Source: Candidatus Woesearchaeota archaeon
Lineage (GTDB): Archaea > Nanobdellota > Nanobdellia > Woesearchaeales > JAFCFN01
Reading direction: 5' to 3'
Length of the DNA: 63,167 bases
Assembly: GCA_017608625.1 (NCBI GenBank)
Contig: JAFCFN010000004.1
Coordinates: 1 to 63,167 of the forward strand
Position numbers and translations under genes: made by a program. Positions 8,385-44,837 of this stretch are shown here, one piece after another. Under the pieces are notes generated by a model. It was not told where the DNA came from, ran no database searches, and saw only the letters and a list, made by a program, of their open reading frames with translations. How positions within the stretch are numbered: the first letter of the stretch is position 1; the number at the start of each line of letters is the position of its first letter.

Positions 8385-8435
8385 GTCTCTTTAAAACCAA
8401 AAACTATTTAAATAATTATCTGTTCAGAAATACCA

Positions 8436-8564
8436 GACGGCCATAGGAGGCTTGTCCCACCTGGTCCCATTCCGAACCCAGTAACCTTTTAAAGGTTGGG
8501 TAAAAGTGAAATGGCCTTCCGTACTGGAGTGTACTGCATTACGCGGGAAATCCAGTAAGCCGTC
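8436..8564 (+). rRNA. rrf: 5S rRNA with a 22-nt insertion (8482-8503), candidate BHB intron
   Basis: Helix I GACGGC/GCCGTC; loop C CCCATTCCGAAC; AAGTGAAA; helix V TACTGGA/TCCAGTA; TATA-like TTTAAATA about 25 nt upstream. Confidence 0.9.
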
Positions 8565-8621
8565 ACTTTAAATTTCTAGAATCATTTAATTTGTTTTTAT
8601 CAATACATCTTCATAATGCTT

Positions 8622-44193: not shown

Positions 44194-44702
44194 AAATATG
44201 TAAAACAGATTATAAGGCAAAACTGTTTGTAGGAGTTATGTTTTCTGATGAGAAATTATTAAATAAAGTAATTGGTGATCTAAAACAGAAATTTGGTGAA
44301 TTAGAAGAGGATTATTTAGAGTATGACTTTGATTTTACTAATTATTATGAAGAAGAGATGGGCAAGAATTTGAAAAAAAGAATTATTGTTTTTAAAGATT
44401 TGATAAATAGAGAAGAGATTGCTGATATTAAAATCTTTACTAATGAATTGGAGGAGAAATATTCTAAGGACGGTAAAAGGCAAGTGAATTTAGATCCTGG
44501 TTATTTTACAAAAGATCAGTTGTTATTACCATCTGCAAAAGAAAGCGCCTATAAAGTTTATTTGGGGAAAGGCGTTTTTGGACATTTATGCCTTATATTT
44601 AGTGGAAATAAAGCAATAGAAGTTAATAGAACATTCCCTGATTTTAGAACAGAACAAGTCAAAAATTTTTTTTTAGATTTAAAGAATAGATTGCCCCTAT
44701 AG
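44190..44702 (+). CDS. DUF4416-family protein
   Basis: FTNYYEEEMG, KIFTNELE, RQVNLDPGY, FPDFR. Confidence 0.8.
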   Translation: MKICKTDYKAKLFVGVMFSDEKLLNKVIGDLKQKFGELEEDYLEYDFDFTNYYEEEMGKNLKKRIIVFKDLINREEIADIKIFTNELEEKYSKDGKRQVNLDPGYFTKDQLLLPSAKESAYKVYLGKGVFGHLCLIFSGNKAIEVNRTFPDFRTEQVKNFFLDLKNRLPL

Positions 44703-44779
44703 TTCAGCTTGGATAGAACACAAGCTTGCGGTTTTTAAGTAAAAAGCTTGTAACCTCGGTTCAAATCCGGGTAGGGGCA
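44693..44779 (+). tRNA. tRNA-Arg(GCG) with 13-nt intron at 37/38 (44732-44744)
   Basis: Acceptor GCCCCTA/TAGGGGC, anticodon stem CAAGC/GCTTG, TTCAAAT loop, BHB helix TTGC/GTAA. Confidence 0.92.
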
Positions 44780-44837
44780 TTTTAAGCTTGGTAAAAAAAG
44801 AAAATTTTTTAAAAATCTTATTTATTATATTAACATC

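Follow-up and report, generated by a model that had tools for sequence, protein, structure and literature searches.

The window, which is the whole stretch of 63,167 nucleotides of woesearchaeal DNA that was analysed, carries a 5S rRNA gene interrupted by a 22-nt insert. This raises the question of whether the insert is retained in the mature 5S rRNA or removed from it by splicing. A reading of this DNA made from its letters and open reading frames (the sequence-only reading) had proposed the latter, in the form of an intron of the archaeal bulge–helix–bulge (BHB) type. The structure of the gene, the inserts of related 5S genes and the splicing machinery of the source genome were analysed computationally in this work, and are described below together with the other possible fates of the insert.

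Anatomy of the interrupted 5S rRNA gene

Comparison of the window with the Rfam 5S model RF00001 returned positions 8433–8568 with a score of 28.6 bits (E 8.6e-4). As a consequence of the 22-nt insert this score falls under the cut-off of 38, and the gene is missed at the default threshold. It is the sole 5S match in the source genome, G000, which comprises 645,741 bp in 14 contigs and is 98.72% complete. The gene is unlinked to the 16S–23S pair, located on contig C3, and both large rRNAs of this genome are of normal length. The features of the gene are given below.

8407–8414, forward strand: TATA-box-like TTTAAATA, about 20–25 nt upstream of the 5S 5' end, identified by eye
8433–8568, forward strand: 5S rRNA gene, precursor form of 136 nt (RF00001, model positions 1–120)
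8433–8481, forward strand: exon 1, with the helix I 5' strand, loop A, the helix II 5' strand, helix III and loop C, assigned from the Rfam consensus and 33 canonical relatives
8476–8479, forward strand: 5' strand of the central helix, ACCC, exon bases that in the mature molecule belong to the 3' strand of helix III; 4/4 Watson–Crick pairs with 8498–8501
8480–8482, forward strand: 5' bulge AG^T, with a predicted cut after G8481, from geometry and the best-scoring junction
8482–8503, forward strand: predicted 22-nt intron, absent from the 5S gene of the same-genus genome G001, its removal giving a canonical 114-nt 5S
8483–8497, forward strand: inner hairpin h', AACCTT (8483–8488), loop TTA (8489–8491) and AAGGTT (8492–8497), from sequence and fold
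8498–8501, forward strand: 3' strand of the central helix, GGGT, intron bases, from the pairing with ACCC and the alignment of inserts of the same type
8502–8504, forward strand: 3' 'bulge' AA^A, with a predicted cut after A8503 and no conserved outer helix closing it
8504–8568, forward strand: exon 2, with the loop B 3' side, the helix II 3' strand, helices IV and V and the helix I 3' strand, assigned from the Rfam alignment, the relatives' profile and the fold

The 3' end of exon 1 reads ...GAACCCAG, and deletion of 8482–8503 joins the two exons as ...CCGAACCCAG|AAGTGAAA... within a 5S of canonical length and fold. Scored against a profile of the 33 canonical relatives, the gene rises from 62.8 to 77.0 bits on deletion, where the canonical range is 71.4–114.0; this score comes from the relatives' profile and not from RF00001. 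The same deletion was the best of nine windows slid from −4 to +4, bearing out the proposal that cutting out these 22 nt would restore a canonical 5S. Alignment with the relatives places the insert between G8481 and A8504, where the 3' strand of helix III passes into loop B. A 27-nt insertion in loop C, as placed by cmscan, is an alignment artefact according to the same alignment.

The sequence-only reading had built its intron from an ACCC/GGGT helix, an AG^T bulge, an AACCTT/AAGGTT stem and an AA^A element, all of which were found at the positions listed above. The unconstrained minimum free energy (MFE) fold of the 136-nt RNA contains both the exon–intron helix and the hairpin, in an equivalent register of 5+5 bp (locally −9.5 kcal/mol, against −8.8 kcal/mol for the exact 4+6 register of that reading). 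Helix III forms only in the RNA spliced in silico, the MFE fold of the unspliced RNA pairing the helix III 3' strand with the intron. A more distant outer pairing, CCATT (8467–8471) with AATGG (8510–8514), had also been proposed. These segments can pair, but the pairing showed no conservation in the nine other genes with an insert after the same base, where 54.8% of cells were paired and shuffled controls averaged 54.5%. A test for an outer helix h likewise found 0 pairs adjoining the 3' element of the insert. Given that an outer helix is not conserved, the 5S motif takes the relaxed HBh' (bulge–helix–loop) form, as it had been labelled from the start, and not the strict hBHBh' form. The motif alone proves nothing, since a naive scan for it returned 173 matches in the 33 canonical 5S genes, or about five per ordinary 5S, and the scan was dropped as evidence.

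The TATA-box-like TTTAAATA was recognized against what we take to be the archaeal TATA-box consensus, and suggests that the 5S gene may form a transcription unit of its own. Just 3' of the gene, the segment 8653–8740 contains recurring 'TGTATCATACAAC'-like words and gives chance-level matches to miRNA models (E 6–9).

Inserts in related 5S genes

A 5S match was present in 53 of 61 genomes sampled across the order, mostly with a length of 112–118 nt. The 5S of the same-genus G001 is 114 nt long (67.4 bits) and has no insert, as is expected for sporadic archaeal introns. In a larger order-wide sample of 151 genomes, 136 had a 5S match, eight of them of 136–167 nt. A phylum-wide sample of 151 high-quality genomes gave a match in 149, of which eight were 136–178 nt long, and five of these eight genomes belong to other orders of the class. 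Inserts are present in roughly 5% of the sampled relatives (8/136 and 8/149). When the 15 genomes of the order-wide sample that had no match were searched with laxer filters, only two matches were returned, both with E above 6.

The union of the order-wide and phylum-wide samples comprises 14 insert-bearing genomes with 17 inserts, the window's own genome included, and the Rfam model finds a single 5S match in each. Two genomes with matches of normal length, G121 and G132, enter only the 136/151 tally. A match on G110:C87 (16.4 bits; G110 has a normal 5S) and one in G197 (83 nt, cut by the contig end) were left out. The inserts occupy three positions, after G8 or after A9 of the motif GAACNCRGA, or in loop C after CAU, and are distributed as follows.

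After G8 of GAACNCRG: G000 (the window), G129 and G073
One base on, after A9: G003, G009, G038, G059, G195, G241 and G243
In loop C, after CAU: G003, G144, G239, G180, G192, G195 and G243

Three of the 14 genes, those of G003 (L035), G195 (L048) and G243 (L050), hold two inserts each. In these genes one insert lies in loop C and the other where helix III meets loop B; a single cutting rule describes both, and the gene reaches a length of up to 178 nt.

The junctions of all 17 inserts were fixed by homology alone, using a profile built from the 33 canonical-length relatives and scored with the insert deleted. Deletion lifted the profile score by 14–36 bits in 14/14 genes. The chosen junction was the top of nine slid windows (−4 to +4) in 17/17 inserts, with ties in six of these, always with an identical product. 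At junctions placed in this way, a 4-bp helix formed by positions −6 to −3 of the 5' junction and −5 to −2 of the 3' junction, and so ending exactly 2 nt before both, was found in 16 of the 17 inserts; the only exception, in G192, has three of the four pairs. When either strand was slid by 1–5 nt, the helix was present in 0–1 of 17, and over 2000 trials with shuffled introns it occurred in 0.2 of 17 on average and never in more than three. In the loop-C inserts of the relatives a 3-bp outer helix can be seen by eye (CGA/UCG, or CGG/CCG in G144).

For a wider scan, a collection of species-representative genomes was searched with a 5S pattern that describes the exons only, allows a gap of 20–45 nt and holds no feature of an intron. 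This gave 56 loci, 45 with an archaeal and 11 with a bacterial label. The archaeal labels are Woesearchaeota, Nanoarchaeota and Nanoarchaeia, together with some 'uncultured Methanosarcinales'. One archaeal match, L055, was rejected as an ordinary 5S caught by accident, and two loci are duplicates over the match (L109, with a Portnoybacteria label, of L073, and L088 of L077). In total 43 distinct archaeal insert-bearing loci were obtained by the pattern, seven of which were recognized from contigs of equal length as already counted, leaving 36 new loci and bringing the total to about 50 genomes. The intron-bearing 5S region is identical in L109, binned with the CPR as Candidatus Portnoybacteria, and in L073, assigned to Candidatus Nanoarchaeia; L109 is likely a mis-binned archaeal contig. 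A scan of metagenome contigs for the two exon ends of the window gene separated by a gap of 0–30 nt, wide enough for the spliced, intron-less and unspliced forms alike, gave 0 matches.

Among the pattern loci, inserts of the A9 type form all four pairs of the central helix in 34/34 distinct loci. Inserts of the G8 type (eight loci) form four pairs in four loci and three in the other four, the mismatch always being the outermost A. The six bacterial chance matches that could be scored form 0–3 of these pairs. A loop-C insert of the same design also occurs in 16 of the 43 loci (for example L054, L058 and L065), with its 5' junction chosen partly by helix score, and the figure of 15/16 for these inserts is descriptive and not a test. 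In L086 a longer insert of the loop-C region (more than about 59 nt), beyond the search range, lies upstream of the site-B insert.

Alignments of the two junction types were made with MAFFT, the A9 alignment containing 36 sequences (35 distinct) and the G8 alignment ten, including the window. Across the A9 alignment the central helix is 100% paired despite substitutions, one of its pairs being UA in 24 sequences, AU in 10 and UG in 1, and another GC in 33 and AU in 2. Pairing of the inner helix reaches 96%, and each of its five pairs has changed on both strands. The whole A9 structure is 97.8% paired against 22–56% when slid, a level reached by 0 of 500 shuffles. For the G8 alignment the corresponding values are 89.5% against 14–55% when slid, with the central helix at 90% and the inner helix at 88.9%, and with both-side changes in all four of the counted pairs of the inner helix (10 genes). 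The window has the only C–G at a central pair that is A–U in the other nine genes, a change on both sides of the helix. Because the sequences are related and not independent, the shuffle statistics overstate significance, whereas the slid controls are unaffected. The sequence-only reading had put forward, as a check, a test of related insertions for covariation of the BHB helices; in the alignments above, the central helix covaries.

Splicing machinery and disrupted tRNA genes

The source genome encodes both of the proteins that splicing of this type would employ, and predicted introns were also identified in its tRNA genes. The loci concerned are given below.

L039:1474–2049 (contig C7), reverse strand: splicing endonuclease EndA, 191 aa (PF01974 97.6 bits, PF02778 55.5 bits)
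Contig C4: RNA ligase RtcB (570.9 bits)
Window 44692–44780, forward strand: tRNA-Ala(UGC), the window's one detectable tRNA, whose anticodon loop holds an insert of about 15 nt at or near the canonical position
C8:22899–22920, reverse strand: predicted 22-nt intron in the D-loop of tRNA-Gln(UUG)
C4:65652–65673, forward strand: predicted 22-nt intron in the T-loop of tRNA-Asp(GUC), at 59/60

EndA is encoded by one gene, and a second EndA-like gene sought in this genome up to E 10 was not found. The nearest structures are the catalytic subunit of the Nanoarchaeum equitans enzyme (3iey_A, E 5e-35) and the Methanocaldococcus jannaschii homotetramer (1a79_A, E 1e-31). In the residue alignment, the region near the catalytic histidine aligns with the M. 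jannaschii enzyme without an insertion, whereas the N. equitans subunit is six residues longer at this point. Given this, the permissiveness of the enzyme is not readable from the protein, and on the enzyme side this is where the case is weakest. At its N-terminus the protein is also extended by a lysine-rich stretch of about 20 aa, which lies outside the coverage of the PDB matches.

In the work of Kaneta et al. (PMC5829648), α4-type EndAs are reported for several DPANN lineages in association with marked disruption of tRNA genes, and the (αβ)2 and ε2 types of EndA are the ones shown to cut relaxed motifs. The enzyme encoded here differs from those relaxed-motif cutters in that its single gene appears to resemble the homotetramer type. 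With one EndA and few detectable tRNA genes, the source genome fits the association of α4 EndA with tRNA disruption drawn there.

Only 12 tRNA genes were detected in the source genome by ARAGORN, and only 10 scored above the cut-off of RF00005. Most of its tRNA genes must either be split or escape detection because they hold several introns or non-canonical ones. It had been suggested that the tRNAs in the window point to a permissive endonuclease. This does not hold for the window, which has a single detectable tRNA with its insert at or near the canonical position, and the argument for permissiveness rests instead on the whole genome. Two of its tRNA genes were checked by hand. Removal of the 22 nt from the T-loop gives a perfect tRNA-Asp(GUC) that was previously undetected, the intron having a strict motif with five outer pairs. 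When the 22 nt are taken out of the D-loop, the 67-nt call for tRNA-Gln(UUG), which is defective, becomes a perfect cloverleaf of 75 nt. The intron of tRNA-Gln reads GUGU AG^A hairpin GCAC UA^U without an outer helix, the same relaxed architecture and the same length as the 5S intron, and tRNA-Gln of this organism would appear to need the relaxed motif to be cut.

The hairpins of the two introns are alike, being AAUCUU AAU AAGAUU in tRNA-Gln and AACCUU UUA AAGGUU in 5S. A common origin is unproven, as the hairpin pattern occurs at six loci (12 strand-hits) in the genome against 2–10 in shuffled genomes. Splicing in silico across the genome followed by ARAGORN reduced 48,282 candidates to seven junction-spanning matches at five tRNA calls. 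A slid-deletion control of the same pipeline returned 3–6 calls against the five true ones. Since the control equals the true count, the pipeline was rejected as a test, and only the hand-checked tRNA-Asp and tRNA-Gln were used. A pipeline match to tRNA-Ala(GGC) was not used, its T-loop reading as a 5-nt loop at the junction.

Fate of the insert and implications

The interpretation favoured here, to which we assign a probability of about 0.8, is that 8482–8503 is an endonuclease-spliced intron with a relaxed HBh' form of the BHB motif, located in the single 5S rRNA gene of this organism. The intron proposed by the sequence-only reading is in this way supported by inserts in about 50 genomes, by junctions that were placed by homology and match the motif, by covariation, by the presence of genes for EndA and RtcB, and by the other short, non-canonical introns predicted in essential tRNAs of the genome. 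According to this interpretation, the 5S gene would be transcribed on its own, and in the precursor the GGGU of the intron would pair with the exon ACCC that later forms the helix III 3' strand. The 6-bp hairpin of the intron would adjoin this 4-bp helix, so that AG^U would bulge out of the 5' strand and AA^A would stay unpaired in the 3' strand. EndA would then cut both 3-nt elements behind their second base, and RtcB would join the exons and probably circularize the intron, allowing helix III to refold and give the canonical 114-nt 5S rRNA. The transcription, cleavage, ligation and circularization in this scheme are all inferred.

Alternatively, the mature 5S could keep the 22 nt in the form of an additional hairpin, in the manner of the retained expansion segments of Halococcus morrhuae and some Clostridia. 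According to the accessible part of a survey of such segments (Stepanov and Fox 2021, PMC7812874), 5S insertions of 13–109 nt exist and two have been shown in mature RNA. The insert of the window does form a stable hairpin. The same part of the survey places expansion segments only in Halobacteriales and four bacterial orders, describes them as retained where tested and as leaving the core undisturbed, and notes that only RNA data could rule out excision. The window insert departs from a segment that forms its own helix and leaves core folding undisturbed, as its last structured bases pair with the 3' strand of helix III and show covariation with it. Retention would have no need for four 3'-terminal bases of the insert to do so, and the exon–intron pairing competes with helix III, where the segments of the survey, as far as its accessible text goes, spare the folding of the core. 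Nor does retention offer a reason for boundaries lying exactly 2 nt past each helix strand in nearly all of the homology-placed inserts, or for three insertion points, one of them in the conserved loop C, obeying a single rule. For these reasons we consider retention quite improbable.

All of the evidence for cleavage applies equally to excision by EndA or another nuclease without re-joining of the exons, which would leave the 5S as base-paired pieces of 49 and 65 nt comparable to the rRNAs that are fragmented at intervening sequences in bacteria. Judging from the fold, the pieces would stay attached to each other through helices I and II. However, RtcB is encoded and must already join the tRNA exons released by the same endonuclease in this organism, and the products of archaeal EndA are ligated in the known tRNA and rRNA cases. 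Excision without ligation is therefore regarded as improbable. A non-functional gene or an assembly artefact is hardly credible by comparison. An Rfam score under the cut-off and an assembly in 14 contigs would be in keeping with it, but this is the only 5S of a nearly complete genome, its exons score inside the canonical range once the insert is removed, and the same architecture recurs in independent assemblies made by different groups.

The spliced intron favoured here is close to the non-canonical BHB introns of archaeal tRNAs with relaxed (HBh' or bulge–helix–loop) motifs. It shares with them a length in the range of 20–37 nt, a 4-bp exon–intron helix, an inner hairpin, 3-nt bulges cut after the second base, a sporadic distribution and exon bases that are sequestered until splicing, and no outer helix is present here. 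The difference from tRNA introns is in the host, a 5S rRNA, and in the insertion points, the loop B/helix III junction and loop C. In 16S and 23S rRNA, archaeal BHB introns lie at conserved functional sites, and EndA and ligase are known to act on these RNAs. The 5S introns would resemble these introns, as well as the processing stems of 16S and 23S, in that the same endonuclease and ligase act on an rRNA and in their location in conserved functional regions, and would differ from them in that those cases concern the large rRNAs, both of normal length in the source genome. The 16S/23S processing stems are supported by the sections available of PMC7714728 and of a preprint (10.64898/2026.03.23.713588). 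With the expansion segments treated in PMC7812874 the window insert shares the character of extra, helix-folding 5S sequence overlooked by databases; unlike the segments described in the part of that survey consulted, it pairs with bases of the core and follows the cutting rule of the endonuclease.

No published 5S intron was found in the literature searched, and the exact phrases occurred in 0 of about 8.4 million texts. PMC7812874 contains no occurrence of bulge-helix-bulge, DPANN, Woesearchaeota or Nanoarchaeota. In the portions consulted of PMC10515664, PMC7714728 and PMC8339473, EndA is described for 16S/23S and tRNA only, the ends of 5S being made by other nucleases. In the part seen of a further preprint (10.64898/2026.05.13.725050), some of 208 complete Nanobdellota genomes are without a 5S detectable above threshold, and interrupted 5S genes could lie behind these cases. 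Interruption of the gene would also account for standard models missing or under-scoring 5S in some DPANN genomes.

The substrates of archaeal splicing endonucleases have so far been tRNA, 16S and 23S rRNA and a few mRNAs, a list that 5S rRNA would join. It is very likely, as judged from the sequence comparisons above, that introns of a known kind have a new host in the 5S gene, and this would be the first intron in a 5S rRNA gene within the literature searched. The approximately 66 relaxed and strict motifs assembled here (17, plus 36 at site B and 13 in loop C) provide a test set for the substrate range of single-subunit DPANN EndA enzymes.

More tentatively, maturation of 5S rRNA may depend on the tRNA-splicing machinery in a sizeable minority of Woesearchaeales-like archaea, these being the first known 5S introns, with splicing as a possible obligatory checkpoint of assembly. 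This proposal, which we consider doubtful at present, includes the observation that a gene may have up to two insertion hot spots, loop C and the helix III/loop B junction, which we take to be ribosomal-protein binding sites of 5S. As the intron sequesters a strand of helix III, splicing could hold the 5S back from folding and from entry into the large subunit for as long as EndA and RtcB had not done their work. If this is true, tRNA processing and ribosome assembly would be coupled in organisms that also have heavily disrupted tRNA genes, and the coupling of ribosome assembly to tRNA splicing in reduced genomes becomes a question that can be tested.
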